Shown: in pieces, positions 2,644 to 55,233 of the stretch
How the letters are laid out: each line of letters begins with the position of its first letter
Numbering within the stretch: position 1 is the stretch's first letter
DNA from: a virus
Lineage: Duplodnaviria; Caudoviricetes
DNA: 55,259 nucleotides
Reading direction: 5' to 3' (one strand)
IMG/VR virus record: IMGVR_UViG_3300023184_005048
Coordinates: 1 to 55,259 of that record
Program-made: the position numbers and the translations under genes
Notes under the pieces: generated by a model
The model's database searches: none
Seen by the model: only the letters and a program-made list of their open reading frames with translations
Told to the model about the DNA's origin: nothing

Positions 2644-3508
2644 AATATTTGAGTCTAATAGCCAATATGGTATTCACGATTGGATTGAAGATCTTAAATC
2701 TTGGGAGTGGAGTAGACCTCAACAACAATCAGTTAATGAAAGTTCAATGAAAAAGTGGTCTGACCATTTTATTGGTGAAGGTTATTATGATAAAGTATCA
2801 AATCATGTTAATAAAATATTTGAAGCTCTAATCAAAGTTGATGAAGAAGAAATCCATATGAGGATGTATGATGTATATGATCAAATACCTTCATCTAAAG
2901 ATAAGTGGACTATGTGTTGTGTTGCTTATGGTGATGTAGAAAACTATGATAAACCAGATAGAAACAAGTATAATGGCTTAGTCACAGTTAGAAGTAAAGA
3001 TGAAAAAGATAGATTAAGAATAACTATTCATATTCTAAAAGCAATCGTTTCTCCAACACTTTATATTGGTTCTTGGCCCAATATGATGTTAAGACAAAGT
3101 GATGAGAGTTATTATGTAACTGATAAAAAATGGCAATGTCAAAACTTTAATATTGATGATTATTCGGATATTAAAGACGGTGCTGAATTTAATACAGATG
3201 ATTACAAAGGTAGAAAAGTTAAAATCTTTCAACACGATATAGATAAGAAGAAACAATATTCTATTGATAAGATAATTAGTATGTATGTACCAGCTGTTGT
3301 TATTGAGATTGGTAATAGAGATAATTCAATTGCCTCTGGTGGTATTAATCTTAAAAAGATAGAATTAATGATAGATGATGCTTTAGAATCTGTTTTACCA
3401 ACACTTGATTATAAAGAAGTAGTATTTGACAAATCTAGATTTGATAGACAGTTTGATGATAATACAGATATCTATGATTATACTATCAAGATTTTATTAA
3501 ACTTTTAA
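2618..3508 (+). CDS. Hypothetical protein with MKYLKTYKIFE tag
   Basis: ORF track; the tag's coding sequence is nearly identical to that at 2374. Confidence 0.7.
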   Translation: MMKYLKTYKIFESNSQYGIHDWIEDLKSWEWSRPQQQSVNESSMKKWSDHFIGEGYYDKVSNHVNKIFEALIKVDEEEIHMRMYDVYDQIPSSKDKWTMCCVAYGDVENYDKPDRNKYNGLVTVRSKDEKDRLRITIHILKAIVSPTLYIGSWPNMMLRQSDESYYVTDKKWQCQNFNIDDYSDIKDGAEFNTDDYKGRKVKIFQHDIDKKKQYSIDKIISMYVPAVVIEIGNRDNSIASGGINLKKIELMIDDALESVLPTLDYKEVVFDKSRFDRQFDDNTDIYDYTIKILLNF

Positions 3509-3672
3509 TAATTTTTTTTCTATACAAGTGTGGTTTTTATTATAAATTTCACACTTTTTTTATTCTAATAAAATACTTCAAAACAACTCAACAACTTTTT
3601 CAAATCTTAGAATATAAATACTAATCAGATACACAAAGTATTTGATATAAACAAAAAAAATAAAAAGCAATT

Positions 3673-4641
3673 ATGGCAGATTTAGATGATTTATTTAATG
3701 GCGGTTTAGAAAGTAAAATGGACTTCCTTAATGACACGAAAACAAGCAACAACAACGATGGTATTTACCGCGTTGACCTTTCAAAAGTGAAAGACAAAAA
3801 AAGAGGATGGAGATCTTTAGTAAGAATCCTTCCTAATTTGACCAAAGACGGTAAAGTTGGTCAATCAGCAATTGAGAAAATTACTCACTATGTTGATATT
3901 AAACAACCTAAAGAATTAAGCGGTTGGTTTGATTCACCAAAGAACTTCAACGAGAAGTGTCCTTTGACTGATTTGTATTACACCATGCAAAATTCAAAAA
4001 ATGCGATTTTGATTGAGAAATCAAAACAATTAAAGTACTCTAAGAAATACTACTCTTATGTATTAGTTATCGAAGACGAACAACAACCAGAATTAGTTGG
4101 TAAAATTTTAATCTGGCAATATGGTAAAACTATCAAAGATAAAATCATGGCTGAAAAGAATGGTGAAATCTCTGGTGTAGGTTGTAACGTATTTGACTTA
4201 GCAGCTGGTAAAGATTTCGTATTAGTTGTTAAAGAAATCCAAACAGGTGATGAAACATATCCTGATTACAAAATGAGTATGTTCAAACCAGAAGCTACTT
4301 CACTTCCAATTTACTTCAAAGAAAAAGGTGTTTTCAAAAATGCTCCTGTTACTGATGGTAAAATTGAAGCTGGTGTTCAAAGTAAAATTAAAGATTTCTT
4401 ATTAGACCGTGAACACGATTTAGAAGAATTTGCTCCAAAGAAATTAACTGATGAGCAACAAGCTAAAATCACTGAGATTTCAAACTTCTTAACTGGTAAA
4501 GCTTCTTCTTCTTTCTCTAGTCCTAAACAAGAAGCAAAACCATCATCTGATGATTTTGAATTTGAAGACAACTTCGCAAAAACAGCGGCTACTACTGCTA
4601 GTGCTTCTGAAGATGAAGATGATTTCTTCAATGACTTATAA
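3673..4641 (+). CDS. Single-stranded DNA-binding protein, T4 gp32-like
   Basis: VRILP, YYSYVLVIED..PELVGKILIWQYGKTIKDKI, VFDL..GKDF, YPDY, acidic C-terminal tail. Confidence 0.85.
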   Translation: MADLDDLFNGGLESKMDFLNDTKTSNNNDGIYRVDLSKVKDKKRGWRSLVRILPNLTKDGKVGQSAIEKITHYVDIKQPKELSGWFDSPKNFNEKCPLTDLYYTMQNSKNAILIEKSKQLKYSKKYYSYVLVIEDEQQPELVGKILIWQYGKTIKDKIMAEKNGEISGVGCNVFDLAAGKDFVLVVKEIQTGDETYPDYKMSMFKPEATSLPIYFKEKGVFKNAPVTDGKIEAGVQSKIKDFLLDREHDLEEFAPKKLTDEQQAKITEISNFLTGKASSSFSSPKQEAKPSSDDFEFEDNFAKTAATTASASEDEDDFFNDL

Positions 4642-41886: not shown

Positions 41887-42270
41887 ATGGAAAAAAAGAA
41901 AAGACCTGATAGTTTTGTAGAAAATCGAATGAGTAAGACTTATCCAACGGAAATTGGCGCACCAAAATTTGAGCCAGATAATATTAGTCTATTTAAAATT
42001 GAAAAAACTTCTAAGATAAAAAAATACTATTCGTCAAAATTTGAAGAAATGACGAAAGAGTATGAAAAGCTAATGTCAGAAATTAAAATGAATGAAAGAC
42101 TTTATATGGCTACGCATAACTTTACACCAATCTCTGGTGAAATTTATCACTTATATAAAAAGGAATCCAATGAAGAATTCCTTTCTTTAATATCTCCGGA
42201 ACAATGGAAAAAATTTGAGTTTATCGGCTCTTTCAAATTTTTATCTGATGGAAGATGGGAGGTAGCTTAA
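41887..42270 (+). CDS. DUF2452-like protein
   Basis: F.P..GEIYHLY...FLSLISPEQW...GSF....DGRW. Confidence 0.6.
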   Translation: MEKKKRPDSFVENRMSKTYPTEIGAPKFEPDNISLFKIEKTSKIKKYYSSKFEEMTKEYEKLMSEIKMNERLYMATHNFTPISGEIYHLYKKESNEEFLSLISPEQWKKFEFIGSFKFLSDGRWEVA

Positions 42271-43871
42271 CCTACCCACCCTTCTTTCAAACTTACCGTT
42301 TTATTGAAACTTTTACCATCAGTATCTAAAATATAATACCCTTTTCTCATCATTTGAACTGGCTCCTTGACGTTTAAAACGTGAGGCTCAAAGATTGCCT
42401 TATCATTAATTATAAGTGAACCTGGGTTAATATAATTGATAAAATCATCTTCATTTTTATCTGGTGATTCATCATTAAATAATCTTTCATATTCATTTAC
42501 TCTAACTCTAACTCCGTGTTCAGCAGATACCCAGTGAATAGTTCCTTTAATTTTTCTTTCAAAAGTCATACCCGATCTTGTTAAAGGATCATAAGTACAC
42601 CTAATCTCAATAATTTCTCCTAATTCATTCTTTATAACTTCATTAGCCTTAATAACATAAGCACCTTTTAATCTTACTTCACCACCTAATTTTAATCTGT
42701 GGAATTTGTTATTGGCTTCTTCTCTGAAATCTTCCGCCTCAATAAATAATTCACCACTAAAAGGAATCATTCTCACTCCAGCACTTTCATCACCAGGATT
42801 GTTTTCAACCTCAACCATTTCAGTTCCCATATCCCAATTTGTAATAACTAACTTAACTGGCTCCATGACTCCCATTAATCTATTAGCAACTACATTCAAA
42901 TCAGTTCTTAAACATTCTTCTAAAAGTAAGTAAGAAACAACAGACTCTTTTCTAGTAACAGAAATTCTATCACAAAAATCTTTAATAGCATTTGGTGTAA
43001 AACCTCTTCTTCTTAATCCAGAAATAGTTGGCATTCTTGGATCATCCCAACCCGTAACATAAGATTCTTCTACAAGTCTTTTTAACTTTCTCTTTGACAT
43101 AACTGTATAGTCAATGTTCAAACGAGCAAACTCAGTTTCTTCTGGTAATGAATTTTCTAAATCACAATTTTCTAACACCCACATATATAAAGGTCTATGA
43201 ACTTCAAATTCTAAAGTACAAAGTGAATCAGTGATACCTTCTTTATAATCAGATAAAGGATGAGCAAAGTCATACATTGGATAAATCTTCCAAGTATCAC
43301 CAGTTCTGTGATGTGACTTAGAGATTATTCTATAAATAACTGGATCTCTTAAAATCATATTTGGTGAAGTCATATCAATATTAGCTCTCAATATTTTAGA
43401 ACCTTCAGAGAATTCACCTAATCTCATTCTATTAAATAAGTCTAAGTTTTCTTCTACTGATCTAGACTTGTAAGGTGAGTCTTTACCAACTGAAGTTGGA
43501 GTTCCTTTCATTAAAGCAATTTCTTCAGATGTTGAATCATCAACATAAGCTAAGCCTTTTTTAATTAAAGTAACGGCACAATTATAAAGAAATTCAAAGT
43601 AATCAGATGTATAGAAAATATTAGCTGGTTTGTAGCCAAGCCATTCTATATCTTTTATAATTGACTCTACATAGTGAGTATCTTCAGTAGTTGGATTTGT
43701 ATCATCAAATCTTAGATTACAAGGTCTATTATACTTTTCAGCTAATCCGAAATTTAGTATAATGGATTTAGCGTGACCAATATGGAGATAACCATTTGGC
43801 TCTGGTGGAAATCTTAATGTTAGTTTATCAAGATTGTTTTTGTCTAATATTTTATCTTCAATGAAATTCAT
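42267..43871 (-). CDS. glnS: Glutaminyl-tRNA synthetase
   Basis: RFPPEPNGYLHIGHAK, LRFDDTNP, IYPMYDFAH, CTLEF, MSKRKL, KGTIHWVS. Confidence 0.95.
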   Translation of the reverse strand: MNFIEDKILDKNNLDKLTLRFPPEPNGYLHIGHAKSIILNFGLAEKYNRPCNLRFDDTNPTTEDTHYVESIIKDIEWLGYKPANIFYTSDYFEFLYNCAVTLIKKGLAYVDDSTSEEIALMKGTPTSVGKDSPYKSRSVEENLDLFNRMRLGEFSEGSKILRANIDMTSPNMILRDPVIYRIISKSHHRTGDTWKIYPMYDFAHPLSDYKEGITDSLCTLEFEVHRPLYMWVLENCDLENSLPEETEFARLNIDYTVMSKRKLKRLVEESYVTGWDDPRMPTISGLRRRGFTPNAIKDFCDRISVTRKESVVSYLLLEECLRTDLNVVANRLMGVMEPVKLVITNWDMGTEMVEVENNPGDESAGVRMIPFSGELFIEAEDFREEANNKFHRLKLGGEVRLKGAYVIKANEVIKNELGEIIEIRCTYDPLTRSGMTFERKIKGTIHWVSAEHGVRVRVNEYERLFNDESPDKNEDDFINYINPGSLIINDKAIFEPHVLNVKEPVQMMRKGYYILDTDGKSFNKTVSLKEGWVG

Positions 43872-43889
43872 AATTTTTATATTTTTTAG

Positions 43890-43960
43890 TTGTCTCGCTA
43901 GGATTCGAACCTAGACTAGAAGAGTCAAAATCTTCTGTGCTGCCGTTACACTACGAGACA
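43890..43960 (-). tRNA. tRNA-Gln(UUG)
   Basis: Cloverleaf; GAAGA-TTTTGAC-TCTTC. Confidence 0.9.
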
Positions 43961-43966
43961 TTTTTG

Positions 43967-44038
43967 TTGCTCCACTTGGACTCGAACCAAGCTCATCTGT
44001 TTCAAAGACAGATATGATCACCCATATACTATGGAGCA
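43967..44038 (-). tRNA. tRNA-Gln(UUG)
   Basis: Cloverleaf; TCTGT-CTTTGAA-ACAGA. Confidence 0.88.
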
Positions 44039-44046
44039 AAATGTTG

Positions 44047-44117
44047 TTGTCTTACTAGGACTCGAACCTAGAATAGAAGAGTCAAAATCTTCTGTGTTGC
44101 CATTACACTATAAGACA
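44047..44117 (-). tRNA. tRNA-Gln(UUG)
   Basis: Cloverleaf; GAAGA-TTTTGAC-TCTTC. Confidence 0.9.
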
Positions 44118-44119
44118 AT

Positions 44120-44154
44120 AAAAAAACCCTACTCAATCAGATTGAATAGGGTTT
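44120..44154 (-). terminator. Attenuator terminator before the tRNA-Gln x3/glnS unit
   Basis: AACCCTATTCAAT-ctg-ATTGAGTAGGGTT hairpin plus T-run. Confidence 0.85.
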
Positions 44155-44182
44155 GTAAAGTTTTAACAATACGATACCGTTA

Positions 44183-44236
44183 TCAATCTGTTCGATTAAT
44201 TTGTTGTTGTTGTTGGTATTGTGATGTTGTTGTCAT
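44183..44236 (-). CDS. Gln-rich leader peptide MTTTSQYQQQQQINRTD
   Basis: Hand-translated; six CAA codons; its 3' end CAGATTGA is complementary to the terminator 5' arm and loop. Confidence 0.85.
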   Translation of the reverse strand: MTTTSQYQQQQQINRTD

Positions 44237-44266
44237 AATTCTATTTATTAATATTTTGTTTCTTTG

Positions 44267-44343
44267 TCGAGATGGCAGGATTCGAACCTGCGAGTTCTCC
44301 TGCTCCCAAAGCAGGCGGGGTAACCGGACTCCCCAACATCTCG
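44267..44343 (-). tRNA. tRNA-Pro(UGG)
   Basis: CCTGC-TTTGGGA-GCAGG; C1-G72, A73. Confidence 0.9.
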
Positions 44344-44351
44344 TATTTTAG

Positions 44352-44425
44352 CGGTCCCGACGGGATTCGAACCCGCACCTCGCACCGTGACAGGGTGGTA
44401 TTGTAAACCATTCAACCACGGGACC
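44352..44425 (-). tRNA. tRNA-Asp(GUC)
   Basis: Loop CTGTCAC; G73. Confidence 0.9.
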
Positions 44426-44489
44426 GTTTTTGAGAATTCTTTTACTCTATTCTCTAAAGAGTATCTTTTGCCTCAAAGGCTACTTGTTG

Positions 44490-44561
44490 CGGTCTAGAAG
44501 GGTTTCGATCCCTCTACTTCTGCGTGACAGGCAGATATGATAGCCACTTCACCACTAGACC
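44490..44561 (-). tRNA. tRNA-Asp(GUC)
   Basis: TCTGC-CTGTCAC-GCAGA; T-loop ATCGAAA. Confidence 0.85.
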
Positions 44562-44568
44562 ATTTTTG

Positions 44569-44641
44569 TCGGGAAGGTCGGAATCGAACCGACTAACTGA
44601 AGCCTCCAGAGCCCCCGTGCTTAAACCTTAGTCACTTCCCG
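44569..44641 (-). tRNA. Atypical tRNA-Pro(UGG)
   Basis: CGGGAAG/CTTCCCG acceptor; loop TCTGGAG (C33, A37); weak D-arm. Confidence 0.65.
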
Positions 44642-44656
44642 TTTTTTATATAAAAC

Positions 44657-44689
44657 AAAAAACCCAGTTAATCTTTCGACTAACTGGGT
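44657..44689 (-). terminator. Attenuator terminator before the Pro/Asp/Gln tRNA array
   Basis: ACCCAGTTAGTC-GAAA-GATTAACTGGGT hairpin plus T-run. Confidence 0.85.
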
Positions 44690-44712
44690 AATGTTTCATA
44701 GGTAATATATTC

Positions 44713-44811
44713 TTAACCTAAAACTACATAGTTAGCCTCTTTCGAACCAGGATCCTGATCGATTACAACTTGCGGTTGCGGGTTAACGATATTTAAGTTT
44801 AAGTTTTTCAT
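44713..44811 (-). CDS. Leader peptide MKNLNLNIVNPQPQVVIDQDPGSKEANYVVLG
   Basis: Hand-translated; Pro/Gln/Asp cluster followed by GGCTAACT, complementary to the terminator 5' arm. Confidence 0.75.
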   Translation of the reverse strand: MKNLNLNIVNPQPQVVIDQDPGSKEANYVVLG

Positions 44812-44816
44812 TTCAG

Positions 44817-44889
44817 TATATATTAAAAAGGATTTCTTCCTTTTGTTCTTATTTTATACAAATATACAACAAAGTTTTAATTTGTCAAA
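44817..44889 (-). promoter_or_regulatory. Tandem promoters: AATATATA (44817-44824) and Bacteroidota-type TATATTTG/TTTG (44859-44889)
   Basis: Both recurring motifs lie directly upstream of the leader ORF. Confidence 0.6.
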
Positions 44890-44901
44890 TATTTTTTATT
44901 T

Positions 44902-45270
44902 TTATTTGAAATTTTCTTTTGATTTGAAATCTAATATTTCAATATTAAAAGGTGTTAATTTTCTACCTAGTTCTTCAACTATAGTAAGTATTTCTCTTTC
45001 ATTATAAACAGTAATGTTAAAATGAGCAACAGCATCTATTTCAACAGCACCATCTTCTAATTCAGCAACAGTTCCTTCATCAAGAATATTAACTTCAACA
45101 GACTCTTGATCGTAAAACAACTCGCTAACTTTAGATAAACCTAAGATTATTTTATCTTCAGTGATATCTTCACCTCTTAATAATATGTCAATATTATAAG
45201 ATTCTTTTGGTTCAGAATATCTGAATCCTACGGTTCTTTGATATTCATTTATTGATTGTAAATATTTCAT
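44902..45270 (-). CDS. Hypothetical protein with MKYLQSINE tag
   Basis: ORF; AATATATA 4 nt upstream. Confidence 0.65.
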   Translation of the reverse strand: MKYLQSINEYQRTVGFRYSEPKESYNIDILLRGEDITEDKIILGLSKVSELFYDQESVEVNILDEGTVAELEDGAVEIDAVAHFNITVYNEREILTIVEELGRKLTPFNIEILDFKSKENFK

Positions 45271-45349: not shown

Positions 45350-45541
45350 TTAAGCGTTAACTGATACGTTAACTGCGTTTAATCCTTTTTTACCTTCTGT
45401 TACTTCAAAGCTAACTGAATCTTTTTCTTTAATTTCATCAATTAATCCTGTAGCGTGTACAAACACATCTGTTCCGTTCTCGTCTGTGATGAAACCAAAT
45501 CCTTTAGCTTCATTGTAGAACTTTACTGTTCCTGTTTTCAT
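45350..45541 (-). CDS. Cold-shock domain protein
   Basis: GTVKFYNEAKGFGFI, DVFVH, GKKGLNAVNV. Confidence 0.95.
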   Translation of the reverse strand: MKTGTVKFYNEAKGFGFITDENGTDVFVHATGLIDEIKEKDSVSFEVTEGKKGLNAVNVSVNA

Positions 45542-46017: not shown

Positions 46018-46255
46018 TTATCTTATTTATTTTTTTATTTCTTATAAATGATTTTACCCAATAATCTGGTATCTCAATATATCCAATATCTTCTTTATTC
46101 GGTTCAGAAAATTCTGTTTTATAGAATCCTTCAGTTAAATGTATATTAGTTATATTAGGAATGCCATCAACAGTTTTACATCCCTTTTCTAAAAGAAAAG
46201 AATTTACAGCTTCAACTACATCAGATGATAAAAATCTTCCTTCAATATCTCTCAT
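46010..46255 (-). CDS. Hypothetical protein
   Basis: ORF; C-terminal RNKKINKII. Confidence 0.6.
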   Translation of the reverse strand: MRDIEGRFLSSDVVEAVNSFLLEKGCKTVDGIPNITNIHLTEGFYKTEFSEPNKEDIGYIEIPDYWVKSFIRNKKINKIIE

Positions 46256-46704
46256 ATTAAATATTTATCACCAGAGCCTGGTCTGAATGATTGTAGATTT
46301 CTAATAGCAGAAGAACTGATATGTTGAAATTCTTCATCACAACGAAAGAAAACAACATCAATATCTTTTTTGAAATCATTAATGAATTTTAATTGGTTAT
46401 CTTCATAAGCCAAGTCGTCACCGTTTCTTAGACCACGGACTAAAACAACTTTATAACCTTCTGATTCTTTTTTCTCAATAAGTTCGTGTAAGAAAGTAGT
46501 GTAAACTTCTACACTTCTTCCAATCTTATCTGATATTTCTAATGATCTTGATAAGGCATCACCACCATTTGCTTTCTCTGGATTAACTCCAATAGCAATT
46601 AAAACATTTCCTTCGCCAAATATCCTTTCAGCTTTCTCAACTATGTTAAGATGTCCGATGTGAAAGGGATTAAAAGAACCGGCATAAATGGCTAAAGTTT
46701 TCAT
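46252..46704 (-). CDS. coaD: Phosphopantetheine adenylyltransferase-like nucleotidyltransferase
   Basis: IYAGSFNPFHIGH, NPEK, VRGLRN..D..YE, HISSSAIR. Confidence 0.8.
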   Translation of the reverse strand: MKTLAIYAGSFNPFHIGHLNIVEKAERIFGEGNVLIAIGVNPEKANGGDALSRSLEISDKIGRSVEVYTTFLHELIEKKESEGYKVVLVRGLRNGDDLAYEDNQLKFINDFKKDIDVVFFRCDEEFQHISSSAIRNLQSFRPGSGDKYLI

Positions 46705-46868: not shown

Positions 46869-48128
46869 TTAGTCAAACTCTAAATCAGAAGCGTATCCAT
46901 CGTATAAGTTTTCACTTCTTTTATCTTTTTGTTCTTGTTGATAAGCAACTGTGTTGTAATAGTTATCTAAACTATCAGAACCTAAGTCGTCACCTTTTGA
47001 GTAATCCAATTCTGGTAAGTACTCTAACAAGTCATTACGATTACACTCTGTTGTGTGGTTACCCGCATCTTGTTTATAATCAACTTTCAATTTGAAACCA
47101 TCCCACTCACAAGAGTCGTATTGTAAATCTAAAGATTTTAATAAGTTATTAATAATCATTGATTCATAATCAACACGTTCTTTACATAAGTCAACTGATA
47201 CAACTTTCTTAGTTAAAGAATCAATCTCTACATTAGAAACGTAGTTGTATTTTTTATCGTGGAACCAAACTTTATCAGTTCTAGGCTCATATTTTTTAGT
47301 GATGTTATTATTCCATCTTGATGCGCCTACACCACCTGAGTAGTAATCATCCCATTCATCCCATCCGTATCCATAACCACTATATGATTTGTATTCAGTT
47401 TTAGAAGGATCTCTATCAACAGGTAAGCCATTCCAATCAACTAATAAACAAGCCTCAGCCAATTTAGTTAAGTGTTCAATGTCTTGTTGTTCTGAAAATG
47501 TGTGTTCTGAACGGTAACCTACAGAGATATTAGTACACTCAGAGTAGATTTTAATAAATTGAACAGAGTCAGTTAAGATACCAGTTGGGTCATTTTTGTA
47601 TGAGAAAGAATCATCAGCCAAGTTTAATTGTTTTGATAAAGCCTCACCAAAAGTATCTGAACAACATCTTTGAGAAGATTGGAAAGTAATAACCGAATCA
47701 TTACCTCTACGGTCAAATGAAATTACTTTGTTGATACCTTCAATCTTTTGGTCTTTTTGAACATTGGCAACCTTTCTTGAACCAACACAACCAACTTCTT
47801 CACCTAAGAAAAAGTAGTAAAGTCCTGGTATTTTGTTTTCAATCATATAAAGCATAATTGTTACACCAGCTTTATCATCTGCTCCTAAAATTGATTTACC
47901 ATCAGTCTTAATAATGTTACCGTCAAAAACGTGATTAACTTGAGTAAGTGCTGAAGTGGCTGTATCTAAGTGAGAAGTAAACATTACATCACTCTCACCA
48001 ATCTTGATAAATAAGTTACCAAACTCGTCTTTTTGTAATTCTGAATTTAACAAAGGGAAAACATCTTCCTCAGTTCCGTGAGGGTATGTTCTACTTGTTA
48101 GTTCTAGAAATTTATCTTTAATGTTCAT
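46869..48128 (-). CDS. M20/M28-family zinc peptidase-like protein
   Basis: SHLDT, LGADDKAG, GEEVG, FDRRG, NISVGY..EH. Confidence 0.8.
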   Translation of the reverse strand: MNIKDKFLELTSRTYPHGTEEDVFPLLNSELQKDEFGNLFIKIGESDVMFTSHLDTATSALTQVNHVFDGNIIKTDGKSILGADDKAGVTIMLYMIENKIPGLYYFFLGEEVGCVGSRKVANVQKDQKIEGINKVISFDRRGNDSVITFQSSQRCCSDTFGEALSKQLNLADDSFSYKNDPTGILTDSVQFIKIYSECTNISVGYRSEHTFSEQQDIEHLTKLAEACLLVDWNGLPVDRDPSKTEYKSYSGYGYGWDEWDDYYSGGVGASRWNNNITKKYEPRTDKVWFHDKKYNYVSNVEIDSLTKKVVSVDLCKERVDYESMIINNLLKSLDLQYDSCEWDGFKLKVDYKQDAGNHTTECNRNDLLEYLPELDYSKGDDLGSDSLDNYYNTVAYQQEQKDKRSENLYDGYASDLEFD

Positions 48129-55061: not shown

Positions 55062-55094
55062 AAAAAAACCCTCAGATTTTGTGTCTGAGGGTTT
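55062..55094 (-). terminator. Attenuator terminator before the large tRNA array
   Basis: AAACCCTCAGA-cacaaaa-TCTGAGGGTTT hairpin plus T-run. Confidence 0.85.
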
Positions 55095-55122
55095 CGAGTA
55101 TTCTTTATTAAAATTTGTTATA

Positions 55123-55233
55123 TTAACTAACAAATCGTTTAGATATGACGAAGCCCTCAGAGCGTCTAATACATAACGTATTATTCACCACTGTCAGTGT
55201 ATTCATGTTCATATTTAAATTCATTGTTTTCAT
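55123..55233 (-). CDS. Leader peptide MKTMNLNMNMNTLTVVNNTLCIRRSEGFVISKRFVS
   Basis: Hand-translated; contains TCTGAGGG, an exact copy of the terminator 3' arm; AATATATA 5 nt upstream (55239-55246). Confidence 0.8.
   Translation of the reverse strand: MKTMNLNMNMNTLTVVNNTLCIRRSEGFVISKRFVS

Follow-up and report, generated by a model that had tools for sequence, protein, structure and literature searches.

A Putative Leader-Peptide Attenuator Gating a tRNA-Pro/Asp Block in a Caudoviricetes Contig

Introduction

Phage transfer RNA (tRNA) genes are usually seen as a static answer to a mismatch in codon usage or to the loss of host tRNAs, and the control of their expression is largely unknown. How could a phage adjust the supply of its own tRNAs? 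This question is raised by a 55,259-nt stretch of viral DNA (Duplodnaviria; Caudoviricetes; IMG/VR record IMGVR_UViG_3300023184_005048, positions 1 to 55,259; the whole stretch is called “the window” hereafter), in which a short open reading frame (ORF) with a run of Pro, Gln, and Asp codons, followed by an intrinsic terminator, precedes a block of tRNA-Pro and tRNA-Asp genes. Sequence comparison leads us to propose, with a probability of about 0.8, that positions 44652–44888 (minus strand) form a ribosome-mediated leader-peptide transcription attenuator gating this tRNA block. Such an attenuator would mean that decoding is measured codon by codon and that groups of tRNAs are delivered on demand; if this is true, the phage could top up exactly those tRNAs that are limiting during infection.

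The window is AT-rich (29.5% G+C), and the DNA runs containing it come from freshwater metagenomes (lake, river, and other). As its record is a 55-kb contig only, genome-wide tests were run on relatives. The glutaminyl-tRNA synthetase (GlnRS) of the window is 78.5% and 73.0% identical to those of two uncultured-phage assemblies of 634,780 and 642,428 bp, respectively, and two large relatives, L001 (634 kb) and L002, keep the layout of the locus and a homologous leader. For huge-phage genomes of more than 634 kb, Bacteroidetes are given as the predicted hosts in the main text of PMC7162821. A scan for the terminator hairpin, whose arms were fixed by the search pattern, returned 72 loci (5 viral and 67 from metagenomes). 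A homologous leader is present in 61 of them, 53 of which have at least one tRNA gene downstream; another ORF stands before the hairpin in five loci, and the remaining six have no ORF, the contig ending less than 100 nt upstream of the hairpin in four of these.

Organization of the Outer Unit and Proposed Mechanism

The locus comprises an outer unit, from the promoter-like site to the second tRNA-Pro gene, and an inner unit devoted to Gln (Table 1). The initial annotation of this DNA had read a Pro/Gln/Asp stretch in codons 11–21 of the outer leader, and the ORF bears this out; the 8-mer that it had placed 11 nt past codon 21, and the partner of this 8-mer in a 12-bp terminator capped by GAAA, are likewise present, the 8-mer occurring only once in the window. 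The downstream order that it had given (Pro, Asp, Asp, Pro, then a Gln-only attenuator) holds in that all the elements are there, with the reservation that the first Pro element scores below the Rfam threshold. ARAGORN does not call this element in the window; its counterpart in L001 and L002 is called as tRNA-Pro(UGG) by the same program. The outer terminator has a fold energy of −18.0 kcal/mol. As for the promoter-like site, it contains a TAnnTTTG motif 47 nt before the outer ATG; sites of the sigma-70 type are not more frequent than expected by chance between 42000 and 46000 (23 found, 19.0 expected).

Table 1. Positions of the features of the outer, inner, and sister units in the window.
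Feature	Position	Strand	Evidence or remark
Promoter-like site of the outer leader	44861..44888	−	Sigma-70-type pattern, 11/12 positions, best of 23 sites
Outer leader ORF, 32 codons	44713..44811	−	ORF list
Sensor codons 11–21 (3 Pro, 3 Gln, 2 Asp, 2 Val, 1 Ile)	44749..44781	−	Translation
Antiterminator 5′ strand, 8 nt	44730..44737	−	Pairs with 44678–44685 in the terminator 5′ arm
Outer intrinsic terminator, 12 bp (5 G-C), 4-nt GAAA loop	44662..44689	−	T-run 44652–44661
tRNA-Pro-like element, UGG at the anticodon place	44569..44641	−	Rfam, 28.6 bits (cut-off 29)
tRNA-Asp(GUC)	44489..44561	−	ARAGORN, Rfam
tRNA-Asp(GUC)	44351..44425	−	ARAGORN, Rfam
tRNA-Pro(UGG)	44266..44343	−	ARAGORN, Rfam
Inner leader ORF, 17 codons, 6 Gln (all CAA)	44183..44236	−	ORF list
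Inner intrinsic terminator, 14 pairs	44124..44154	−	Hairpin scan
Three tRNA-Gln(UUG) genes	43889..44117	−	ARAGORN, Rfam
GlnRS gene, last of the unit	42267..43871	−	Three class-Ic Glu/Gln synthetase domains
Sister attenuator (36-codon leader 55233..55123, terminator 55095..55065)	55065..55233	−	Before 16 tRNAs

In the mechanism that we propose, transcription would start from the promoter-like site, and a ribosome would translate the 32-codon leader. With ample charged tRNA-Pro, tRNA-Asp, and tRNA-Gln, the ribosome would pass codons 25–27, which hold the antiterminator strand, and reach the stop codon, where it would open the upper hairpin and sit between the two antiterminator strands, allowing the terminator to form; the terminator arms would pair with each other, and RNA polymerase would stop ahead of the tRNA genes. 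If any of the three tRNAs were scarce, the ribosome would stall within codons 11–21 and leave the antiterminator strand free to pair with the terminator 5′ arm; the terminator would then be blocked and the tRNA-Pro/Asp block transcribed. Polymerases passing through would next meet the inner, Gln-only attenuator gating the three tRNA-Gln genes and GlnRS, with the consequence that a shortage of Pro or Asp would open the first block only and a shortage of Gln both. The quantity sensed would be the availability of charged tRNA at the ribosome, which may reflect tRNA supply and not a shortage of amino acids. As the output would be the very molecule that is sensed, tRNA supply would be under a feedback control resolved to the codon.

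The tRNA-Pro-like element (44569–44641; 3782–3856 in L001 and 3765–3838 in L002) deserves a separate remark: by eye, it has a poor D arm and a C where U33 is expected. A 9-mer of the terminator 5′ arm (44678–44686) recurs within it, at 44591–44599; the window holds two copies of this 9-mer where 0.26 are expected, and at least two are found in 3 of 100 shuffles. The antiterminator may also pair within the tRNA-Pro-like element, or the hairpin may derive from that tRNA.

A Putative Translated Sensor Matching the Downstream tRNAs

The match between leader and tRNAs is borne out by the relatives. The 53 loci with downstream tRNAs carry 239 of them, namely 101 tRNA-Asp, 65 tRNA-Pro, and 63 tRNA-Gln (229/239, 96%), the ten others being Ser, Arg, Thr, Glu, and Met (once each) and five of undetermined type. 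Among the 49 distinct leader ORFs, both Asp columns are Asp without exception, and Gln occupies the column between them in 47. Codons at these kept positions have not stood still: the two main Pro columns show three and four synonymous codons (among CCG, CCT, CCA, and CCC), and synonymous turnover is seen at the Gln columns too. With respect to codon phase, the antiterminator core agrees in 48 of the 49, though its offset from the ATG takes seven different values. Taken together, the kept Pro/Gln/Asp positions, the synonymous turnover, the in-frame insertions and deletions, the 96% of cognate tRNAs, and the 99.0% of antiterminator pairing described below suggest that the outer ORF behaves as a translated sensor, in line with the reading of the initial annotation.

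Rare codons sharpen stalling in classical attenuators. The leaders favor codons that are rare in the phage: CCG makes up 44% of their Pro codons (56/127) versus 5% in the ORFs of the window (25/479), and CAG 41% of their Gln codons (69/169) versus 10% (42/416). By analogy, this preference would sharpen a stalling sensor; it may, instead, reflect a constraint at the nucleotide level.

Contigs from RNA libraries that bridge the leader, the terminator, and the first tRNA were found once in each of two studies, which is weak evidence as DNA carry-over is possible. These libraries were seen as contigs; stretches of the window that they do not cover are uninformative, and no 3′ ends can be read from them.

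Antiterminator Pairing, Folds, and Geometry

In each of the 53 distinct relatives, the terminator arm finds its best partner in the antiterminator, and 99.0% of 296 cells are paired, as compared with 0–51.5% when the partner is slid. Every change in the antiterminator preserves a pair with the terminator arm, even where the residue changes. The residue ahead of the core is any of Val, Lys, Glu, Gly, Gln, and Arg, while its codon ends in G in 47 of the 49 ORFs (six commonest codons), and core codons switch between Ala and Thr and between Asn and Ser. The pair-keeping changes are G-U versus A-U (22 and 15 sequences, respectively), A-U versus G-U (33 and 4), and C-G versus U-G (36 and 1).

When the terminator 3′ arm is left out, the RNA downstream of a ribosome stalled at codons 11–21 is predicted to fold into a long hairpin whose base is the 8-bp antiterminator helix and whose top spans the leader stop codon. 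For the window, the energy of this fold is −15.4 kcal/mol, which 12 of 200 shuffles equal, and the antiterminator helix belongs to the minimum-energy fold of 54 of 54 sequences, with energies from −13.1 to −22.6 kcal/mol; the hairpin within the antiterminator loop is only weakly better than chance (equaled by 684 of 5400 shuffles). With its terminator formed, the complete leader of the window folds at −43.2 kcal/mol (z −4.6; equaled by none of 200 shuffles), and the terminator is the sole consensus structure found by RNAalifold in 37 sequences.

Distances, too, may suit the proposed mechanism. The footprint of a stalled ribosome extends about 15 nt from the P site. The last sensor codon is 7 or 10 nt from the predicted duplex in 46 of 53 sequences; in the window, the first paired base, 11 nt past codon 21, would lie just beyond the reach of a stalled ribosome, in agreement with this footprint. 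The stop codon of the window leader is 15 nt past the antiterminator, within the hairpin that the latter closes.

The Same Design at Other tRNA Blocks

The outer unit does not stand alone, as nearly every tRNA block starts with a strong terminator behind a short ORF in the window, in the two large relatives, and in a more distant complete genome of 518,809 bp (GlnRS 74% identical). In most units, only 5–25 nt separate the terminator from the first tRNA. The large relatives have seven such blocks: His/Phe/Trp/Lys; Arg/Ser; Glu/Tyr; Ile/Gly/Met/Ala; Asn/Arg/Leu/Val/Ile/Thr/Met; Pro/Asp; and Gln. When leaders are permuted among blocks, no other arrangement among the 5040 scores as well as the true one in either large relative, by isotype as well as by codon-anticodon reading, bearing in mind that the two genomes are homologous, so that these results are not independent. 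Complementarity between each leader and its own terminator arm points the same way, with 5 and 14 of the 5040 permutations scoring as low; the own arm is the leader’s best partner in six and four of the seven rows, respectively. For the three units of the window, the true assignment ranks 1 of 6 permutations.

The sister attenuator near the window end (Table 1) illustrates how composition follows the block. Its leader is rich in Asn, Met, Thr, Leu, Val, Ile, and Arg, which are the isotypes found in its 16 tRNAs, and the share of its residues that are cognate to its own block is 0.71; its antiterminator duplex (−17.0 kcal/mol) is reached by none of 300 shuffles. The promoter of this unit would fall past the window end. 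The 518,809-bp genome has tRNA blocks composed differently, and its leaders differ with them: Pro and Asp tRNAs belong there to an eleven-isotype block whose 46-codon leader is 0.71 cognate, the leader of a block of five tRNA-Lys genes has five consecutive Lys codons, and the true pairing of leaders with blocks outscores the rest of the 24 permutations. The module is used for a synthetase gene too, as indicated by two metagenome loci (L065 and L092, hairpin 1301–1324) where the hairpin of the outer unit stands behind a different leader, with an Asn-Asp-Asp run, and is followed by a gene for aspartate-tRNA(Asn) ligase (477 and 469 bits, cut-off 353).

We consider it probable, with less assurance than for the outer unit itself, that these observations reflect a genome-wide, codon-resolved circuit for tRNA supply in the huge freshwater phages of this clade, in which almost all the tRNA blocks found and at least some synthetase genes lie behind dedicated attenuators mirroring the downstream isoacceptors. 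These would be paralogous modules, retuned by swaps of sensor codons and chainable, and would represent the first ribosome-mediated attenuation of tRNA genes and the first in a virus. The composition of a leader would then predict the tRNAs downstream, a useful annotation rule for huge phages.

On the side of the untranslated regions (UTRs), the segment 44812–44860 (minus strand) and the 5′ UTRs of most promoter-bearing leaders in L001–L012 have in common a small hairpin rich in A and G, downstream of which come a conserved T-run and, right before the ATG, a motif of alternating A and T; the first five to ten codons are alike in most leaders. These common features point to paralogous modules with a shared translation-start region.

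The Inner Gln Unit: In Series or Independent?

The inner Gln leader is conserved in L001, L002, and 14 metagenome loci, and the GlnRS that ends the unit is 53% identical to an annotated phage GlnRS. We compared the presence of TAnnTTTG, which we take to be the Bacteroidetes −7 element, within 120 nt upstream of the two kinds of leaders: it is found before 47 of 49 distinct outer leaders, mostly 44–60 nt from the ATG, versus 3 of 17 inner Gln leaders, and the inner leader of the window has none in these 120 nt. By layout, 14 of 54 distinct loci have the two units in series, 22 have a merged block (Gln among Asp and Pro tRNAs, with no inner leader detected), and 18 are too short downstream. Outer leaders hold two to five Gln codons in both layouts, including all 14 series loci. 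The exception is a lineage with a single outer Gln codon, having lost two of three, and a Gln block at a distance of 1.7 kb; this block is preceded by promoter-like sites and by a protein gene, and no terminator lies between the two units.

The two attenuators appear, from these comparisons, to act in series, which fits both the kept outer Gln codons and the mostly motif-less inner leaders. The contrary explanation is that the inner leader, the tRNA-Gln genes, and GlnRS are transcribed from a promoter of their own, the outer Gln codons being a relic of a merged block. Descent from a merged ancestor would account for such codons just as simply, and would lead one to expect them, given the 22 of 54 loci where Gln tRNAs are directly behind the outer terminator and the 20 of 53 where Gln is the first tRNA; moreover, three inner leaders do have the motif. 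A phage-specific promoter could also lie in the spacer of about 30 nt that precedes the inner ATG; this spacer is kept in relatives and recurs ahead of one further internal leader. Against an independent promoter stand the 14 of 17 inner leaders devoid of the motif, and the minus strand at 44237–44400, for which our scan lists no sigma-70-like site. The A/T-rich 9-mer flagged by the initial annotation as a possible inner promoter stops 5 nt short of the inner ATG, a distance too small for a leadered mRNA, and more likely belongs to the translation start region. Finally, it is precisely the lineage with a separate Gln block behind promoter-like sites that has lost two of its three outer Gln codons. 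On balance, we regard an independent inner unit as rather unlikely, while giving it some weight.

Weighing the Attenuator Against Other Explanations

Several points weigh against an attenuator at this locus, and they have to be set beside the comparative data. After its start codon, the outer leader has only 8 Pro, Gln, or Asp among 31 residues (P = 0.059 versus a 14% background); the 8 of 11 in codons 11–21 give P = 1.6 × 10⁻⁵, for a stretch that was picked post hoc, and the first ten codons are not cognate to the block and resemble those of sister leaders. The antiterminator duplex (−9.0 kcal/mol) is matched by 34 of 300 shuffles in the window, and the duplex energies of the family are reached by 376 of 5300. 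Facing a terminator of −18.0 kcal/mol, this 8-bp helix would have to win kinetically. Two-sided covariation is not visible in the 72 loci because of the fixed arms. RNAalifold shows no conserved pause or anti-antiterminator (1:2) hairpin in the 37 sequences; such a hairpin is a usual feature of the trp type and dispensable for the mechanism, and the lack of a conserved one indicates a two-state design. Some loci fit poorly: L018, which has a different hairpin, lacks a good complement to its 5′ arm (−3.0 kcal/mol, an energy that 272 of 300 shuffles reach), the complement in L019 is weak (−7.3 kcal/mol, 69 of 300), and in the W02 relative, this leader pairs at least equally with the arms of two other units. 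Tests against chance are weak for the single window, and the case beyond chance rests on the comparative data.

Could the hairpins be plain terminators, insulators, or RNA-processing signals, with ORFs that are fortuitous or untranslated and tRNAs expressed constitutively by read-through or from unseen promoters? The weak composition and duplex tests just given would suit this explanation, and many short ORFs arise in AT-rich DNA. It does not account for leaders that track their blocks (best of 5040 permutations twice and best of 24 once), for a frame kept through synonymous codon turnover, or for antiterminator changes that all preserve pairs, and the 5–25 nt between terminator and tRNA in most units leave no room for a promoter; we therefore hold it to be very unlikely. 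Even less credible, in our opinion, is that the product of the ORF is a small peptide with a function of its own, or an arrest peptide of the SecM/TnaC kind acting through its amino-acid sequence and not as a decoding sensor. Conservation over 46 distinct variants with an invariant Asp-Gln-Asp core is what such a peptide would show; on the other hand, the cores of sister leaders are quite different, each fitting its own tRNA block, the C-terminal third varies in residues yet keeps its base pairs, and an arrest peptide would leave the match to the downstream tRNAs unexplained.

Comparison with Known Regulatory Systems

The mechanism proposed for the outer unit would be classical ribosome-mediated attenuation; what would be new is the tRNA itself as product, the viral setting, the modular genome-wide use, and the chainable units. 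As in the trp, his, leu, and pheA attenuators, we find a leader ORF, regulatory codons, mutually exclusive antiterminator and terminator hairpins, and a T-run; unlike them, the unit is two-state, with an 8-bp antiterminator closing a hairpin across the stop codon. The ilvGMEDA, ilvBN, and thr attenuators are multivalent, the shortage of any one amino acid relieving termination. They resemble our leaders by mixing codons (here Pro, Gln, and Asp; up to ten isotypes in sister leaders), but they control biosynthetic enzymes and respond to amino-acid supply, whereas decoding tRNAs and tRNA supply would be concerned here. In the Escherichia coli pheST attenuator, with its pheM leader, it is an aminoacyl-tRNA synthetase operon that is under leader-peptide attenuation, and a short leader ORF rich in cognate codons and an intrinsic terminator likewise precede a gene of the translation apparatus. 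Its closest parallel is the inner unit with its Gln leader, tRNA-Gln genes, and GlnRS, and the aspartate-tRNA(Asn) ligase gene found behind the outer-unit hairpin in relatives is similar in this respect; the differences are that tRNA genes come first among the products, that the setting is a phage, and that no conserved pause or anti-antiterminator hairpin was found. T-boxes (RF00230) also gate aminoacylation genes according to the state of a given tRNA, by letting either a terminator or an antiterminator form, but they bind uncharged tRNA directly and independently of translation, whereas an ORF of the translated type is conserved here.

Searches for a known element at the locus gave no match to an Rfam leader family or T-box at 43800–45000 (E ≤ 1), where only tRNAs and five weak, unrelated families were returned; over the whole window, 23 tRNA matches and nothing else reach the Rfam gathering score. 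We found no published account of leader-peptide attenuators before tRNA genes, of such attenuators in phages, or of this element, and the strings “attenuat” and “leader” are absent from the main text of PMC7162821. A possible precedent, a leader rich in Phe codons upstream of pheV (tRNA-Phe) in E. coli, was discarded: the 105-nt yqgA–pheV gap of MG1655 contains no such ORF. If the units work as proposed, classical attenuation would extend to non-coding genes and to viruses, and multi-isotype leaders and serial gating would be natural cases of OR-like and hierarchical control.

Additional Features of the Locus and Its Surroundings

The two tRNA-Asp genes of the outer block are separated by a 63-nt spacer (44426–44488, minus strand) with small hairpins, which, by eye, is conserved in L001 (about 3642–3701) and may represent a small RNA or a signal for processing. 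Relatives also have, within their Asp/Pro blocks, tRNA-like genes with an anticodon loop of irregular length (ARAGORN “???”, with a four- or two-base anticodon), for instance, at 3288–3361 (minus strand) in L001, at 2744–2815 in L015, and in several metagenome loci. Beyond the outer unit, two ORFs of 122 and 136 aa without a match to a Pfam family lie between neighboring genes that do have Pfam matches, all on the minus strand: these encode a cold-shock domain protein (45350–45541), a cytidylyltransferase-like protein (46252–46704), and an M28-family peptidase-like protein (46869–48128).

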